64,000 nucleotides of DNA, taken from a virus. Both the position numbers and the translations under genes were made by a program. Of the stretch, positions 7,996 through 42,224 are shown in pieces. The DNA is taken from IMG/VR virus record IMGVR_UViG_3300043438_001221. One strand, given 5' to 3'. The first letter of the stretch is position 1; each line of letters opens with the position of its first letter. Below the pieces are notes generated by a model. That model made no database searches, was not told where the DNA came from, and saw nothing but the letters and a program-made list of their open reading frames with translations.

Positions 7996-8601
7996 ATGGC
8001 ATTACCAAATTTAACCGACGAATTTGTAGCAGACAGCTTTTTTGGGGTATTACACACTTCAAATGTGCCTGTTTCTGGAGCAAACTTACCCCCTGTATAT
8101 GATGGGTTGGGTAATAAGACATCCCTTATTTTGGGATCAAATGGTAATGGTGCTTCAATTACAGGAACTCTCTCTGCTGATGGGTTGACATTGAAAGGTT
8201 TCACATCAATTATTGATTATATATATCCCATTGGATCGGTTCTATTTACCAACACCAGCACCAACCCGTCGGTAAGATTCACTGATACTACATGGGAGCA
8301 AACCGCAGAAGGTCGGTTTATAGTTGGAGTTGGTGTTGGAAATGATGGAATTGAATCTAAAATATTCGGGACTGGTAATACAGAAGGAACTTACAGCCAT
8401 ACTTTATCTGTCACTGAAATACCGCCCCACACTCATAGTATAACAGCGCGACCAGATCAATCATCCGTGGATTTTGATAATTCTGTTCAAGGGGGGTCTA
8501 ATGGCGATTGGACAGCAACCACAACCTCGACTGGTGGTGGTCAACCACACCAGAATACACCACCCGGTTTCGGTATGTATATTTGGCAAAGAACATCTTA
8601 A
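7996..8601 (+). CDS. Baseplate/short tail fibre protein (gp10 C-terminal/collar-like)
   Basis: YPIGS...WEQ..GRFIVG...HTLSVTEIPPHTH...GGGQPHQNTPP..YIWQRT motif set; late promoter 7985-7990. Confidence 0.75.
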   Translation: MALPNLTDEFVADSFFGVLHTSNVPVSGANLPPVYDGLGNKTSLILGSNGNGASITGTLSADGLTLKGFTSIIDYIYPIGSVLFTNTSTNPSVRFTDTTWEQTAEGRFIVGVGVGNDGIESKIFGTGNTEGTYSHTLSVTEIPPHTHSITARPDQSSVDFDNSVQGGSNGDWTATTTSTGGGQPHQNTPPGFGMYIWQRTS

Positions 8602-36244: not shown

Positions 36245-36526
36245 ATGGATAATTATTTCAAAGACTTGGGCATAATTTACGAAAATCTTGATATGGAATC
36301 GTCATACGATGATTATGACCCACAAACAGAAAAAGTCAAGGCAGAGGCGCATGAACTTTGTTCATATATTGAAAAATATCTAAAGGGGACTATCAATTTT
36401 TACCAAAACAATAAAAAAGCCTTTTTCGATAATCCTTCGGATATGAACAGCTTTGAAGAATTGAAAGGCATGTTTGAAAGACTTCGCCCAACGCTCGCTC
36501 AATATTCCCAATTTGGGAAGAATTAA
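36245..36526 (+). CDS. Late protein, candidate internal head protein
   Basis: TAAATA 36234-39, 5 nt to ATG; MDNYFKDLGIIYE. Confidence 0.6.
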   Translation: MDNYFKDLGIIYENLDMESSYDDYDPQTEKVKAEAHELCSYIEKYLKGTINFYQNNKKAFFDNPSDMNSFEELKGMFERLRPTLAQYSQFGKN

Positions 36527-37719
36527 TCGTTCCAATATCTCATAAATCTACGAGATGGATCACCATGATTCGTATTCAACGCTTCCATGAAAGTTCCAAT
36601 ATTCTCCGGTCTTTCAAGGAATCTGCTTTCTCCAAGCTTTCTAAGCTCTGGAACCAACTTGTAATACTTGGAACGGTTCTTCCAATTCAGAATTGCCTCC
36701 ACTTTCTGTTCCAAATCGAGAGAATCCGTGAATTTTAGGAAATCAGGAGCATCCTGATATGTCACCATATCCTGAACCATGCAGGGAATACCCAAGCAAG
36801 CTCCCTCAATGTATTTGATATCTGATTTTGACCTGTTGAATGGGATATCCTTCAAGGGCGCAAGAAGTAATTGGGGATTCAAAGAAGCAATGAATTTGGG
36901 GTAATCCATCAGAGATTGCCAAGGATGGAATTCGATTTCCTTACTTTCAATATATGGATGCAGGGGAGGAGGATAAGCACCAATGAAAATGAACTGATAC
37001 TTGGAGCGGTTATCAATGATGAATTTCAACACATGGGAAAAATCATCCTGTTGTCCCGTGACATTCTTTACATCAAAGTGCGCTCCCGATCCTGAATAGA
37101 GGATGCGTGGTTTCTTCTTATTCCTATCAAAGTTCTGGATAACCTTACCATAATTATAGTGATGACCAATCCACCATTCGGGAGGGAAGTTGGGAATCAC
37201 GGAAGTCTTTTGTTGTCCCGTCTTCTCAATGAAGAGATCGCGCATGTATTTACATGTCACTGTCACCTCATCCGCCATGTTCATCATATCCACGCAGTTC
37301 TGACGAATCTCATCGGAAGCAAATGCGTGTTTATAGGAATTGTAATCGGGAATCTCTTCATGGAAGACCACATCATCCACCTCATAGATGATCTTAAACC
37401 CGCATTCGGGTTGGATACTCTTGAGGAATTTAAAGAATTCTTTCTGTTGAGTCGAACATTGGCGTTGGAGCTTGATGGTTTTCACATCCCGATACCAATC
37501 CTTGTTGAGAACCATTTTACGAATGGTCGTGGAATCCCCATGACCCCCCAAATTAACCTGCATTTCGGGCCATAAGATACGCCACGCAGCGCAGCCACTA
37601 ATATCCGCTGAAAAGTTTAGATATGTATTACCCTTTTTCGGAGGCTCTTGGGTGGTATTTTTTACCGCATAGGGGTTCTTAGCAAAAGGAGATGATGGGA
37701 AGGGCGACTTTTGAAACAT
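36523..37719 (-). CDS. GT-B fold glycosyltransferase
   Basis: GCAAWRI, YEVDD, ADEVTVT, VIPN, LAPL..PFNRSKSDIKYIE. Confidence 0.85.
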   Translation of the reverse strand: MFQKSPFPSSPFAKNPYAVKNTTQEPPKKGNTYLNFSADISGCAAWRILWPEMQVNLGGHGDSTTIRKMVLNKDWYRDVKTIKLQRQCSTQQKEFFKFLKSIQPECGFKIIYEVDDVVFHEEIPDYNSYKHAFASDEIRQNCVDMMNMADEVTVTCKYMRDLFIEKTGQQKTSVIPNFPPEWWIGHHYNYGKVIQNFDRNKKKPRILYSGSGAHFDVKNVTGQQDDFSHVLKFIIDNRSKYQFIFIGAYPPPLHPYIESKEIEFHPWQSLMDYPKFIASLNPQLLLAPLKDIPFNRSKSDIKYIEGACLGIPCMVQDMVTYQDAPDFLKFTDSLDLEQKVEAILNWKNRSKYYKLVPELRKLGESRFLERPENIGTFMEALNTNHGDPSRRFMRYWND

Positions 37720-37741
37720 GAAGAGATTTATCCATGTTTTT

Positions 37742-38620
37742 TCATTTGTCAATTGTTATTCTTCTAGTCACTCCACCCTCTTTCTCCAAGAACACCGTCT
37801 CACCGTTGATATGTTTTTCAATCTCTTTTCTGTGGGAAATCGCATAAAATGAAAGATTGTGTTTATCGATCCGTTGTTTTACAAGTTGAACCAGAAGATC
37901 AAATCCATGACCATCAAATGCTGAATCGAAAAATTCGTCCCCGAATTCCACATTGGATGATACTCCAGAAATCTTCCGTTTCAAATCCTTGAATGCCCAC
38001 GCACACGCAAGATCAACAGTCCTACGCTCCCCACCACTCAGATTCCAGTAAGAAATCTCCTTACCTTTGTCATTGGAAAGCTGCTCATCAAAATATTCAT
38101 CAAATTTACAACGAATGGACATGCCAAGATCGTTGATGTATTGCTGGATGCTTGCGTTCATCATGGAAAGGAGTCTCTTCACCACAAAGCTACGGACACC
38201 TTCTTCCCCAAGAACGAATTTACAGATTTCATAATCTTCCGATTTCTGTTTGAGTAATAGGAAATTGTTGCGTTCCGTATCATGTCTCTCTTGAGTCTTG
38301 ATGATGTTTTCTTCAAATGCTGGTTTCGGTAATTCATCCAACTTTAAATTATCCAGAGAGTCCTTGTATTGCTTGAGACTGTTTTCCAGACCTTCTAATT
38401 TTTGTTTGGTGACTTTCGCTTCATTAATTTGATCTTGAAATTCTGATACCTTTCGCTGAACCTTTTCTTTTTTAGATTGAAGTTGAGATTTTTGTTCCTT
38501 CAATTCATCAATTTCCTCGACAATATCATCCAATTCGGATTGATATTGTTCCTTCATTTTCTCCAAATGTTCCACATGGGTATGGGGAATATCTTGGAGG
38601 CATTTGTCACATTTAATCAT
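37742..38620 (-). CDS. gp46: gp46/SbcC/Rad50 ATPase, C-terminal half
   Basis: Starts MIKCDKC (Zn hook), coiled coil, LSGGE, DEFFDSAFD, ISH. Confidence 0.9.
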   Translation of the reverse strand: MIKCDKCLQDIPHTHVEHLEKMKEQYQSELDDIVEEIDELKEQKSQLQSKKEKVQRKVSEFQDQINEAKVTKQKLEGLENSLKQYKDSLDNLKLDELPKPAFEENIIKTQERHDTERNNFLLLKQKSEDYEICKFVLGEEGVRSFVVKRLLSMMNASIQQYINDLGMSIRCKFDEYFDEQLSNDKGKEISYWNLSGGERRTVDLACAWAFKDLKRKISGVSSNVEFGDEFFDSAFDGHGFDLLVQLVKQRIDKHNLSFYAISHRKEIEKHINGETVFLEKEGGVTRRITIDK

Positions 38621-38921
38621 TTTTCAAAATTTCATTTAAATCTTTTCTTTCGGTTTTACAAATAGCGAAAACACGATCAAGCATTCTATTAGCACCGCGT
38701 AGCAATTTAGGCGTTCTAAAATCTTCAATTATGTTAGATAATTTAGACATTCGGACATAATCACCGTCTTTTGTTTGGCGATTTAAAACATTTAGAAAAT
38801 CTTCAATAGATGTCAACTTACCCCAATCCAACGAATAAGGAATTTGTGTAAAATGAGATTGATGGTTTATCCAGTGTTCGACCCTACTTTTTTCAATAAC
38901 GAATATTGGTTGTTTTTTCAT
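38613..38921 (-). CDS. Hypothetical protein inserted within gp46
   Basis: ATGA overlap with N-half stop; ATGATTAA overlap with C-half start. Confidence 0.65.
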   Translation of the reverse strand: MKKQPIFVIEKSRVEHWINHQSHFTQIPYSLDWGKLTSIEDFLNVLNRQTKDGDYVRMSKLSNIIEDFRTPKLLRGANRMLDRVFAICKTERKDLNEILKND

Positions 38922-39835
38922 ATAACTTTCTCAATTTGTTCGATTTCTTTCGCCTTCAACTTTTTCAAAGTTTCCTTGGATGAAATCGCATCATTGATAT
39001 GACCAATTTTACCATCCAGCTTTCGGCAAGCATCGTCCCACTTCTCTTTCTCCAATTGTATCGCTAAAACATCCGTTATGGATGTTTTAGCGATCTTTTC
39101 CTCTGTTTCATCAATCTTTTCTTGAATATCCTTGCGCTTTTGTTCAAGAATAGCATCCCTCTCTTGGACTTTCTTCAGATAATCCGCTTGCTGATCATTC
39201 AGCGTTTCCAGAGTGTGATTAAGTTCTTCCAATCTTGCAGTGGAAATGTTCATCTCTCCCTTATTATCACGAATAAGAGTCTTCAATTCGCTGCTCATCT
39301 TACCAAAGACTTCCAGAGAGAAAATATCGTTGATGAATTTACGCTTCTCCTCTGGTTTCTTCGCCATGAAGGGGATGTTATCCGAAAGAGATAGAATGTC
39401 ACAGCTACGGCAGATGACGGGATTGGAACCAATCAGATCACAGATGAATTTATCAGTGTTGGCGATGGAATCCTTAGTGATGTCTTCTTCGCCTCTCAGA
39501 AGAGTCACAGTGCTTGGTTTGACTTGCCGTTTGATCGTGTAAGTCTGAACGTCTTGCTCCGTCTCCACATCAAACGTCAGTTCAATGGCACCCTTTCCCT
39601 TGGTGATGTTGTTGATGATGAAATCCTTTTTGATTTCACGGATGGTTTTACCAAATAATGCGTAATAGAAAAGTTCCGCCATTACGGATTTTCCAATTCC
39701 GTTCACACGATCAGGATTATCAATATTCTTACCAGTGATCAAATTGAAACCGGATTGGAAATCTACGGAAATCTGATCATTTCCAACACTGAGGAAATTC
39801 TGACCTTTAAGAGTGAGATATTTTATACGTCTCAC
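38918..39835 (-). CDS. gp46: gp46/SbcC/Rad50 ATPase, N-terminal half
   Basis: QNFLSVGN, GKN...NGIGKS, YALFGK, PFM..RKFI, then coiled coil. Confidence 0.9.
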   Translation of the reverse strand: MRRIKYLTLKGQNFLSVGNDQISVDFQSGFNLITGKNIDNPDRVNGIGKSVMAELFYYALFGKTIREIKKDFIINNITKGKGAIELTFDVETEQDVQTYTIKRQVKPSTVTLLRGEEDITKDSIANTDKFICDLIGSNPVICRSCDILSLSDNIPFMAKKPEEKRKFINDIFSLEVFGKMSSELKTLIRDNKGEMNISTARLEELNHTLETLNDQQADYLKKVQERDAILEQKRKDIQEKIDETEEKIAKTSITDVLAIQLEKEKWDDACRKLDGKIGHINDAISSKETLKKLKAKEIEQIEKVI

Positions 39836-40281
39836 AGATTTTCGTAAGGTTTTAAAGATTTAATTTCCACCACTTCCTTCATACGATTGAGAGAATCAAC
39901 TTTCATTCGATGAAGATTACAATTCCAAGCAGAGTCTTGACCAGCAGTATAAAGAACATTGCGAACAGACCATTCCAAATCCTGTCCAAGATGAAGGGAA
40001 TAATCCCTATCACATTTTTCCTTAGTTGGTTCTTCGGAATAAAGAGCTACCGTTTCCCCTGTTTGAGAATTGGTGAGAACGTAAATCCATCGATTCTCAT
40101 CTTCTTTCGCTTGTCTCCAAGACTTTTCATCCCACCCTCGCATCAAAGCATTGGCGAACCAACTCATCATTGTTTCCACATCATGGGGAATCGTCGGATT
40201 CTTGTCAACGGTTTCACAAAAGTCCCTAGCCCAATCCCAAGCATCAAATGAATGGGGTAATTTAGATTTATTTTCTTTCAT
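39832..40281 (-). CDS. Hypothetical protein
   Basis: ORF track. Confidence 0.6.
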   Translation of the reverse strand: MKENKSKLPHSFDAWDWARDFCETVDKNPTIPHDVETMMSWFANALMRGWDEKSWRQAKEDENRWIYVLTNSQTGETVALYSEEPTKEKCDRDYSLHLGQDLEWSVRNVLYTAGQDSAWNCNLHRMKVDSLNRMKEVVEIKSLKPYENL

Positions 40282-40282
40282 A

Positions 40283-40546
40283 TTATTTTATCAATTCGTC
40301 ATGTGGCCAATATCTTACACTTGTTCCCGTGAAATTACAAGGGGGAATCCTGAATAAAAATTTCAGAATCTTCGCTCTCCATCCGCTTGCCGTGATACAG
40401 ACTTGTAGAGGATGGTGTCCCAACATATAACCAAAGTGTTCAGGATCAATCGTTCTTGATTCAAGATGAGACTTACGATGTTTGTGGAATTCCTTTACCC
40501 GTTCGGATTCAATCATCTCTCGTTGATGTTCTTCAATTGTTTTCAT
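40283..40546 (-). CDS. Hypothetical protein
   Basis: Start MKTIEE, coupled to upstream stop. Confidence 0.55.
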   Translation of the reverse strand: MKTIEEHQREMIESERVKEFHKHRKSHLESRTIDPEHFGYMLGHHPLQVCITASGWRAKILKFLFRIPPCNFTGTSVRYWPHDELIK

Positions 40547-40791
40547 ACCGTTCCAAGTCCCTGTCCACAAATAGCACATCCTCTAAAATCATACAACCAC
40601 CCATATGCGTCTTCAACAATAGAATGTCCACATTTACCATTTTTATGATTTTCCAATTCTTTTTCAATATCTTCTATCGTAGCATCTCTGATCTTACTTG
40701 CCAAAACACATTGACCAATACGCTCAGTCACCTCTTCGACAAAAACCTTTTTCAAATCAAAATCACTTACACTTCTCATATAATTCATCAT
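40543..40791 (-). CDS. Small Cys/His-containing protein
   Basis: CGH...CAIC. Confidence 0.55.
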   Translation of the reverse strand: MMNYMRSVSDFDLKKVFVEEVTERIGQCVLASKIRDATIEDIEKELENHKNGKCGHSIVEDAYGWLYDFRGCAICGQGLGTV

Positions 40792-41782
40792 TGATTTTCT
40801 TCACTCTTACCAATTGCTCATCATCCAGCTTGAGTTGTTCGTAGAACTCATCAAACATTCCAACAATATCAATCGAATCGACTTGTTCAACATCTCCGAT
40901 TGTCTTTGTCGCCACGTTGTATTCCGTGGCGAGACGGAAAGGAGCAAAGTTGGACAGGTAAATCTTGAACTTCTCCACCTTATCATCTTCCACATCTTTG
41001 TCAATGATCAGCTTGATGATGTTTCCTTCCACATCCTCCTTGGAATAATCCTTGATCTTGGATAAGGGTATCTTGATGAATTCTGGAGACACCGTATTTT
41101 TCACAAATTCCACAGAATCGTCTTCCAGATTCAGGATGTGATACCCCTTGTCATCTCCACAATCATTGAAATCGTGATGAAAGGTATTACCGATGTATCG
41201 GATCGTTCCTTCGTTGTATTTCTTGATACTCTTGGTGTGAAAATGACCAGACCAAACATTGGTGGTTCGGGACGCTAGGAAATCCATGACTTGGAATCCA
41301 TGATCACAGACCTTGTAATTGTTCATCTGAAATGTCTGGATTTCAAAATGACCGAAGATGTGGTCAAATTTACCATTCGGTAATTCGTGATTCCATGGAA
41401 CGAATAATAATTTCTTACCAAACGCATCCAATTCTAAATTCTGATCAATGATGGTGATGTTATCATGTCCCTTGAGAAATCCCAAACTATGGACATCAGA
41501 ACGGTTCTTGTAGAACGCATCGTGATTACCTATCAGCATCAGGAGGTTGAAGTCCTTGAACTTGGCGATCAATTCTGATGCAACGTGGATTGTCTGAACG
41601 GAGATTTCCGAACGGTTATGGAAGAAATCACCAAGGAAAAAGATATCGGAAATCTTCTTCTTTTTCAGATCAGCGACAATCCAATCCGCCCATTTCAAGG
41701 CGATTTCATGCCACTCTGTTGAATTTCCGTAAAGACCCAAGTGAAGGTCTGAGAATAAGGCCACTTTTGGTTTTTTAATCAT
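40763..41782 (-). CDS. gp47: Recombination nuclease gp47/SbcD/Mre11
   Basis: SDLHLG, GDFFH, GNHD, GHFE, SGHFH; 339 aa from MIKKP. Confidence 0.95.
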   Translation of the reverse strand: MIKKPKVALFSDLHLGLYGNSTEWHEIALKWADWIVADLKKKKISDIFFLGDFFHNRSEISVQTIHVASELIAKFKDFNLLMLIGNHDAFYKNRSDVHSLGFLKGHDNITIIDQNLELDAFGKKLLFVPWNHELPNGKFDHIFGHFEIQTFQMNNYKVCDHGFQVMDFLASRTTNVWSGHFHTKSIKKYNEGTIRYIGNTFHHDFNDCGDDKGYHILNLEDDSVEFVKNTVSPEFIKIPLSKIKDYSKEDVEGNIIKLIIDKDVEDDKVEKFKIYLSNFAPFRLATEYNVATKTIGDVEQVDSIDIVGMFDEFYEQLKLDDEQLVRVKKINDELYEKCK

Positions 41783-42224
41783 CGTCGTATTCATCTCCCT
41801 CCAAATTGGGCTTAACATATACATGTCCCATGGAATCTGGTCCACTCATGCTTTCCATATATACCATCTCCTTGTAATCCTCCAGACCCTTGTGTTGTCC
41901 GTTTTCCTTCTTGATGCGGTTGCAGAAAGCGTTCCAAGCAATGCGGTTGAAATATGAGAACGGGTTGAAGTCCGATTCAATGTTATATAGCTTCTTCTCC
42001 AAAGCTGCATACATTTTCAGAACTGCGTCCCCGACCATCTCATCTTTCCAAGAGCGGGAATATCGAATGAAATTAATCTTGTATGACAATCCCTCTGCAA
42101 TGTTCATTAGATGAACCCCCAATTCGTTCAGATTCGCCCCCGTCTCATAGTATTCCACCAATTGCTGTTTGAACAGCTTGGAATTGACATAATGGGGTTT
42201 CTTGGCATTTTTTTCGTTAATCAT
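41775..42224 (-). CDS. gp55: Late transcription sigma factor (gp55-like)
   Basis: HYVN, IAEGLSYKINF..Y, DEMVGDA, NPFSYF..IAWNAF..RIKKE. Confidence 0.92.
   Translation of the reverse strand: MINEKNAKKPHYVNSKLFKQQLVEYYETGANLNELGVHLMNIAEGLSYKINFIRYSRSWKDEMVGDAVLKMYAALEKKLYNIESDFNPFSYFNRIAWNAFCNRIKKENGQHKGLEDYKEMVYMESMSGPDSMGHVYVKPNLEGDEYDDD

Follow-up and report, generated by a model that had tools for sequence, protein, structure and literature searches.

We analyzed a 64,000-nucleotide stretch of IMG/VR record IMGVR_UViG_3300043438_001221 (the window), which derives from an uncultured, T4-like phage and carries on its minus strand, in two pieces, the gene for gp46, a protein of the Rad50/SbcC family. 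As described so far, Rad50/SbcC is a single polypeptide with an arm that doubles back at a zinc hook. In the window, the upstream piece (gp46N, the N-half) ends just ahead of this hook, the downstream piece (gp46C, the C-half) begins at it, and an open reading frame (ORF) of 102 amino acids (aa) lies between them. With a probability of about 85%, we conclude that gp46 is made as two polypeptides that form a working two-chain Rad50 cut at the hook apex, the gap between the halves being a slot for cargo genes. An earlier note on this DNA had arrived at a functional two-chain Rad50 broken at the hook, and this reading gained support from the selection acting on the halves, from the age and wide distribution of the split and its retention with varied inserts or with none, from the lack of a spare copy in a complete relative and from the position of the cut in the apex loop.

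Both halves aligned to PHROG 77 ('SbcC-like') in the right order, the N-half to positions 293-562 and the C-half to positions 629-950 (E 2e-38), and the N-half additionally matched Pfam AAA_23 (E 1e-11). Walker A, CxxC hook, signature, Walker B and H-loop were all present and undamaged (Table 1). Furthermore, a profile of intact relatives matched the solved Rad50/SbcC chains 3qf7, 3aux and 6s6v. Their motifs and architecture, the partner gene and the profile matches to solved structures all make the window proteins members of the Rad50/SbcC family. The N-half terminates in ...KEIEQIEKVI-TGA, with the tail EQIEKVI at 38921-38941. Its stop overlaps the start of the 102-aa ORF as ATGA (38921-38918), and the end of this ORF overlaps the C-half start as ATGATTAA (38620-38613). 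The halves lie in one frame, with 297 nt from the N-half stop codon to the C-half ATG and eight in-frame stops in between. The coordinates and details of the earlier note, the two overlaps between the ORFs, and its argument that an in-frame stop rules out readthrough were thus all borne out by the ORF list and the sequence.

To place the junction among its relatives, we used IMG/VR and metagenome contigs ranging from 90% down to about 45% identity (loci labelled with L-numbers) and mapped gp47, both halves, the cargo and a glycosyltransferase gene on all fetched loci. GenBank phages gave no DNA match to the region and a gp46 identity below 30% at best, that is, no close cultured relative, and a metagenome scan yielded few additional loci. 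Among the fetched loci, the non-redundant junctions comprised 45 intact and 10 split ones, the latter with gaps of 45-635 nt. The junction of intact relatives was ...KEIDKFSSVEDGIQCDKC..., close intact relatives reading ...KLKVKEIDKFSSVEDGIQCDKCLQ..., and S-V-D-G-x-x-C-D-K-C was retained in intact relatives down to about 50% identity. Every split form ended on the N side in ...KEIEQI(E/N/D)K(V/A)(I, TK, VK or II)-stop and began on the C side with M-I-K-C-D-K-C or, rarely, with M-S-V-K-C, M-S-V-I-K-C or M-N-I-H-C. Compared as nucleotides, the split tail and the intact sequence could be matched codon by codon, one or two residues being lost on balance; the cut lay three residues ahead of the first hook cysteine, in agreement with the break at the hook read from the window earlier. 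Since all split forms carry the same derived tail, we read the break as one ancestral event and hence as an old allele of single origin, a claim that rests on the shared derived junction. Eight IMG/VR contigs with names of their own, which stem from different samples, share the three-ORF layout of the window at 88-90% identity, and the 102-aa protein is recorded in identical form on 8 contigs, of up to 143 kb. In a large protein collection, stand-alone C-half homologues of 288-292 aa, beginning at the hook with M-I-K-C-D-K-C, formed at least 40 clusters (90% identity), one of them present on 59 contigs of up to 203 kb. The labels 'x2' and 'subunit 1/2' in Ochrobactrum phage OC and Acidovorax phage ACP17 turned out to denote gp47 plus intact gp46, not splits.

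An AlphaFold 2 (AF2) model of an intact relative (L013, 596 aa), based on an alignment of 23 intact sequences, showed helices 257-302 and 320-396 flanking a loop (303-319) that holds C310 and C313. Residues 305-310 were the sole low-confidence stretch of the arm (by predicted local distance difference test, pLDDT). The split maps to L013 residues 305-307, where in this model the outgoing helix runs out into the apex loop, immediately ahead of the zinc ligands. C310, C313 and Q315 were invariant and I317 and H321 nearly invariant among the 23 intact relatives. In the window, the hook (38576-38611) reads C-D-K-C-L-Q-x-I-P-H-T-H, and the predicted zinc-binding residues (CxxC, then H-x-H) all remain on the C-half. 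The conserved His eight residues past the CxxC is a possible extra zinc ligand, and the hook chemistry may thus differ from that of a four-Cys Rad50. The new tail EQIEKVI stands where intact forms have DKFSSVEDG. Here, heptad-like hydrophobic residues replace a Ser/Gly loop, and one may speculate that they lengthen the coil and compensate for the lost bond.

Both halves were found to be under strong purifying selection. Among split forms, the N-half had a ratio of nonsynonymous to synonymous substitution rates (dN/dS) of 0.056-0.099 and the C-half one of 0.053-0.131, at a dS of 0.8-2 except for the near-identical L019/L022 C-half pair (dS 0.19), and this range was the same as in comparisons with intact relatives. 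Low dN/dS at a dS of about 1 therefore indicates that the split lineages diverged by roughly one synonymous change per site while both pieces were kept; the relaxed selection that the earlier note had named as an argument against its reading was not seen. The same holds for an intact gp46 elsewhere in the genome: the split relative L019, whose record of 207,489 bp has direct terminal repeats and is rated 100% complete by CheckV, contained exactly one N-half match, two further relatives (87-89% complete) also had one each, and no second gp46 copy was present within the 64-kb window.

The gap itself proved to be variable. In the window and the L003 group it measures 300 nt and holds the 102-aa gene. 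Other split forms have a 156-aa GNAT acetyltransferase (L017; Pfam E 6e-9), a 108-aa ORF (L018 and L019), a 69-aa ORF (L081 and L084), an 89-aa ORF (L082), a 78-aa ORF (L106) or an ORF of at least 200 aa (L109) in this place. In L022, a 68-aa stretch is fused in frame to the C-half, and in L021 the gap comprises 45 nt only, with a 13-codon mini-ORF that begins on the same ATGA overlap and stops 6 nt ahead of the C-half ATG. The cargos are unrelated to one another across split forms. No homing endonuclease was detected in any gap examined, and GNAT was the only named family among cargo ORFs, in searches of the window cargo and six further types (Pfam for all seven, PHROGs for all but the 102-aa relatives L077/L078; the 78-aa cargo of L106 and the cargo of at least 200 aa of L109 were left out). 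Members of the 102-aa family also occurred between gp47 and intact gp46 in L031/L080 (72% identity), upstream of gp47 in L076 (66% identity) and in tRNA gene arrays in L077-L079 (about 50% identity). The same break thus exists with other inserts, and the cargo family exists at other sites; therefore the 102-aa gene occupies a pre-existing gap. It is exchangeable cargo and not the cause of the split, and the earlier view of a gp46 'split by an inserted gene' had to be given up, as the same break and the same derived tail occur with at least eight other, unrelated inserts and with a 45-nt spacer.

Of the 58 minus-strand ORFs of at least 80 aa (median GC 0.40), only two are richer in AT than the 102-aa ORF, which has a GC content of 0.31 and a GC content at third codon positions (GC3) of 0.235; the corresponding GC/GC3 values are 0.40/0.45 for the N-half and 0.38/0.39 for the C-half. 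Its family is under purifying selection (dN/dS 0.07-0.38), as is to be expected of a real gene. Between the window and the L003 group, dS was 0.41 for the cargo versus 0.81 and 1.04 for the halves, which is consistent with the cargo having been exchanged later than the sequence around it. The AF2 model of the 102-aa protein (pLDDT 86) was mostly helical, with five helices and two short strands. Pfam, PHROGs and tblastn against GenBank phages gave no match, and ESM Atlas, Foldseek (PDB, BFVD) and VIA-align (wide PDB set) gave nothing above background, the best Z being 5.8 and the best Foldseek match a 'NUDIX domain protein' at E 0.016, with a TM of 0.31 relative to the target. A search of 1.8 billion representatives with the cargo profile returned only 32 small unnamed relatives, and the contexts of four distant family members were short contigs or runs of small ORFs. 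In L077 (1734-2024) and L078 (5998-6345), the cargo homologues are wedged between tRNA genes, with tRNA-like sequence touching both ends. The longer relatives carried no Pfam domain, one SIR2-STAND protein excepted. This protein, P0081 (1400 aa, SIR2_2 + AAA_16, STAND-like, defence-type), gave 12 weak repeat matches to the middle of the cargo profile (summed E 4e-11), all in its C-terminal part. We regard the match as a probable artefact of helical repeats, although similarity of a phage mini-protein to the repeats of a defence sensor would deserve attention.

Of the parts of the enzyme, gp46N has ATPase lobe I and the outgoing coil, and gp46C the N-terminal CxxC hook, the returning strand and lobe II. 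Both halves would be translated from one message: ribosomes finishing gp46N would re-initiate on the cargo ORF and then on gp46C, by which the halves would be kept in step. The ATGA stop/start overlap at the N-half end was present in every form read at base level (window, L003, L017, L019, L021, L022, L081, L082 and L084). An AGGA/GGAG/GAGG core within 20 nt of the start was found for only 4 of the 72 long ORFs in the window, which has many stop/start overlaps. As the phage hardly uses Shine-Dalgarno sequences, the bare start of the C-half is normal for it, and the phage, presumably like its host, seems to depend little on Shine-Dalgarno initiation. Once made, the halves would pair via the antiparallel coiled coil and via head lobes I and II, the sole missing bond lying in the apex loop. 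Two C-halves would dimerise through zinc, and the split complex would work with gp47 (Mre11) as in T4. The gap behaves as an intergenic-like slot that gains, exchanges and loses small accessory genes, and the split allele moves among related phages by homologous recombination.

Several points weigh against this picture. The N-half tail differs from intact forms over seven residues with loss of S-V-D-G, and the hook geometry may therefore be altered. The dN/dS values are rough, as dS is near saturation. Outside the 64 kb of the window, a second gp46 is excluded only through the complete relative. Translational coupling is read from the overlaps only, and we infer the association of the chains and the activity of the enzyme from sequence.

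Other explanations were considered alongside the two-chain enzyme. It appeared highly improbable that a single full-length gp46 is still made, whether through bypass or readthrough, through a group I intron spliced out of the RNA, or through an intein or split intein spliced out at the protein level. The shared frame of the halves at a distance of 297 nt, the precedent of bypass in T4 gene 60 within the same phage group, and an intein signal in gp46 of the relative L084, though at the Walker A site, speak for a single chain. Yet there are the eight in-frame stops, and every C-half has its own ATG and is called as a separate protein in the database. Gene-60-style bypass had been kept in the earlier note as a lesser option, but the putative take-off codon ATA and landing codon ATT require different tRNAs, the gap of 300 nt here and 45-635 nt in relatives compares with 50 nt in gene 60, and in L021 the sole ATA near the landing site runs into a stop. 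Splicing, the other lesser option, fared no better. Rfam gave no match at E<=1, bar a chance thermometer match, the gap is filled by an ORF under selection, and the 45 nt of L021 are too short for an intron core. Moreover, alignment with intact gp46 extends to the last residues of the N-half and resumes at residue 2 of the C-half, which leaves no room for the blocks of a Hint domain; intein motifs were not seen at the junction, and no Pfam intein match was found on the window ORFs.

We give equally little credence to the idea that the split gp46 is a decaying gene and that recombination-dependent replication is served by another gene or by the host. Such decay might be suspected where an essential gene is interrupted by a low-GC foreign ORF, and the search for a second gp46 in the window phage covers 64 kb. 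Against it stand a dN/dS of 0.05-0.13 in both halves at a dS of about 1, in the same range as in intact comparisons, the integrity of all catalytic motifs, the persistence of the split, seen in 10 or more types of junction and in 40 or more protein clusters, and a complete relative without a second copy. The chance that the junctions are artefacts of metagenome assembly is smaller still and practically negligible: the source is a contig of an uncultured virus, but the same junctions and cargo were recovered at 83-90% identity, as non-identical copies, from many independent samples and assemblers, which contradicts the chimera that the earlier note had named as a danger to its reading. A role of the 102-aa protein as a working part of the enzyme, which caps or bridges the open hook or regulates gp46/gp47, is less far-fetched, but we still consider it unlikely. 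Its ORF is chained by overlaps between both halves and is under purifying selection, and homologues of 66-72% identity adjoin gp46/gp47 in two other layouts (L031, L076). However, other split forms have unrelated cargo or none, other family members reside in tRNA arrays or runs of small ORFs with no gp46/gp47 nearby, and no fold or family match points to a function. The two-chain gp46 with an exchangeable cargo is thus preferred.

As to the spread of the split, trees of the halves calculated after removal of the junction residues showed split and intact forms interleaved with weak support. The split/intact label required four to five changes on these trees, no better than shuffled labels. Trees of the gene body cannot tell one origin from several, because recombination interleaves the forms. 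The identity profiles of L081 and L082 were more telling. Compared with the window, they showed 40-60% identity across the N-terminal ATPase head and 32-60% across the C-terminal head, but 80-84% in the last 30 N-half residues and 92% in the first 25 C-half residues. For equally distant intact relatives, identity was 72-92% in the heads but 0-32% where the N-half adjoins the junction and 52% in the opening block of the C-half. The pattern of L081 and L082 is what one would expect had recombination copied the junction, together with its flanks, onto another backbone. Taken together, the interleaved trees and the window-like junction on two divergent backbones therefore indicate that the split allele spreads by recombination.

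Two of the split loci carry an endonuclease-like gene (337-382 aa) immediately after the gp46 C-half (within L022:6893-8408 and L082:3902-5050). The products have several helix-turn-helix (HTH) motifs, DUF7487 and the motif ...YYPDIYIPKDNR-V-EVKS..., and they also match PHROG 'endonuclease'/'HNH endonuclease'. About 0.4 kb further downstream in L022, past the next ORF, there is a duplicated gp46 3' end (8289-8408; 75% to residues 251-290). The genes look like free-standing homing endonucleases and, judged by their sequences, could drive conversion tracts through gp46; a DUF7487 endonuclease-like gene was present neither in any gap seen nor in the window. A wider idea, which is possible but which we hold only tentatively, is that the split represents a self-propagating 'gene-splitting slot', in which a junction allele of single origin at the only site where Rad50 can be cut, coupled early expression assured to any small gene that lands there and spread into divergent phage backbones by gene conversion of the flanks, perhaps aided by an endonuclease, would act together. 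In a bolder version, the open apex would alter the function of the Rad50 arm, for instance by forming an openable gate or a hook made of the C-half only, with CxxC and His.

With T4 gp46/gp47, SbcCD and Rad50-Mre11, the window proteins share the family, the gene neighbourhood, the head motifs, an antiparallel coil with a CxxC at its apex and an adjacent Mre11-type gene. Whereas described Rad50/SbcC is a single chain folding back at the hook, the window has two genes, cut three residues before the first hook Cys. The split forms also differ from other Rad50/SbcC in that the S-V-D-G lead-in is replaced by the new tail and the hook is followed by H-x-H. Hopfner et al. reportedly co-expressed the N and C segments of Rad50 for crystallography in 2000 and found them to assemble into the ATPase head, and Barfoot et al. 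are said to have studied the coiled coil and hook of T4 gp46 in 2015. Engineered two-chain Rad50 proteins are laboratory constructs, mostly without arm and hook, whereas the window holds a natural full-length split that has been maintained in evolution.

The Mre11-Rad50 and SMC field has yet to settle how force or conformational change is transmitted along the Rad50 arm. If the two-chain reading is true, a natural, long-maintained enzyme cut at the apex shows that covalent continuity through the hook is dispensable, and it would offer a ready two-chain system in which the strands of the arm can be labelled, cross-linked or exchanged separately. In addition, gp46 would join the short list of T4-type genes in pieces, with a split site that acts as a recurrent landing pad for accessory genes and moves between genomes by recombination.

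Among such genes in pieces, nrdA of phage Aeh1 is split by mobE, T4 has gene 39/60 with mobA, and gene 43A/43B is split in Aeromonas phages 25 and 44RR, the gene 43 gap being taken up by a seg gene in one phage and by an untranslated spacer in another (PMC2988022). The gp46 case resembles these in that an essential gene of replication or recombination, unbroken in relatives, has become two cistrons divided where a cut is tolerated, with reassembly being required. Some phages have an ORF in the gap and others only a short spacer, which is also the case for gene 43. In contrast to the known cases, the gp46 gaps seen here contain changing small accessory genes, not homing endonucleases. Neither that review (PMC2988022) nor the 'fractured genes' paper names gp46 as a split gene, and full-text literature searches for a gp46, Rad50 or SbcC that is split or interrupted in phages retrieved nothing relevant. 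Genes in pieces and the Rad50/SbcC family were already known; what is new here is the natural split gp46/Rad50 as a gene in pieces.

Two further loci deserve mention. In the cultured Bacillus phage 0305phi8-36 (NC_009760 146905-150941; L112), gp8, annotated as 'exonuclease', is a fusion of Metallophos and AAA_23 (an Mre11-type phosphoesterase and a Rad50 N-lobe), and gp5, a 236-aa 'ATPase' encoded three genes downstream of gp8, displays SGG, LDE and a late His in the order of ABC lobe II. To judge from these motifs, gp8 and gp5 look like another, differently cut split Rad50. This case differs from the window in lineage, in a cut after the hook, in genes that lie apart and in the fusion of Mre11 to the N-half. 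In the Logan SRR22752015 contig L084 (320-2789), a further cut interrupts the N-half at the Walker A site. The first ~37 gp46 residues lie in a 77-aa ORF, which is followed by a 362-aa ORF of no known family and then by a 380-aa ORF, which opens with Intein_splicing (Pfam 36.7 bits, cut-off 35.8), ends this part in ...SHN/SCIAE and continues with the rest of the N-half. This looks like a split-intein 'fractured gene' beside the non-intein split at the hook, and would put gp46 in three coding pieces.

The split gene is embedded in a minus-strand block of T4-type replication and recombination genes that runs from a UvsW-like helicase, a gp55-like late sigma factor and gp47 through three small ORFs, the two gp46 pieces with the 102-aa ORF between them and a glycosyltransferase-like gene to a DNA polymerase (Table 1). 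gp47 is positioned upstream of gp46 in all relatives, and the glycosyltransferase-like gene is a conserved neighbour, lying downstream of gp46 in relatives too.

Table 1. Features of the split gp46 locus in the window
Feature	Coordinates	Strand	Basis or location
gp47 / Mre11-SbcD-like nuclease subunit, 360 aa, gp46 partner	40763..41845	-	PHROG 100 'SbcD-like subunit', E 4e-67
Three small accessory ORFs (82, 98, 149 aa) between gp47 and gp46	39832..40791	-	ORF list
gp46 N-half, 305 aa, GTG start: ATPase lobe I + outgoing coiled-coil strand	38918..39835	-	AAA_23, PHROG 77
Walker A NGIGKS	39686-39703	-	N-half
Cargo gene, 102 aa, small helical protein	38613..38921	-	ORF list; start/end overlap both gp46 halves
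gp46 C-half, 292 aa, starts MIKCDKC: zinc hook, returning strand, ATPase lobe II	37742..38620	-	PHROG 77
Zinc-hook CDKC, C-half residues 4-7	38600-38611	-	C-half
H-T-H residues after hook	38576-38584	-	C-half
Signature SGGE	38027-38038	-	C-half
Walker B FGDE	37934-37945	-	C-half
H-loop ISHR	37829-37840	-	C-half
Glycosyltransferase-like gene, 409 aa, overlaps C-half end	36523..37752	-	PHROG 7162 glycosyltransferase, E 3e-20

Unlike in the window, gp47 and gp46 adjoin directly in most relatives. The three small ORFs that separate them here gave no match in Pfam or PHROG searches, and the stop of the 149-aa ORF overlaps the start of the gp46 N-half as GTGA. A homologue of this ORF (53% identity) was located downstream of gp46 in L062 (7014-7445). 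The gp47-gp46 neighbourhood as a whole has the look of a hot spot for small mobile genes. Near the locus, the T4 late-promoter motif TATAAATA was absent, nor was it enriched in the window, and scans for sigma-70 promoters and terminators remained at background level. Finally, a perfect palindrome with a 16-bp stem and a 3-nt loop (39060-39094) lies inside the coding sequence of the N-half, where it encodes ...IAKTSITDVLAI...; the full palindrome is specific to this phage, as relatives retain only central arms of about 6 bp (5-10 mismatches).

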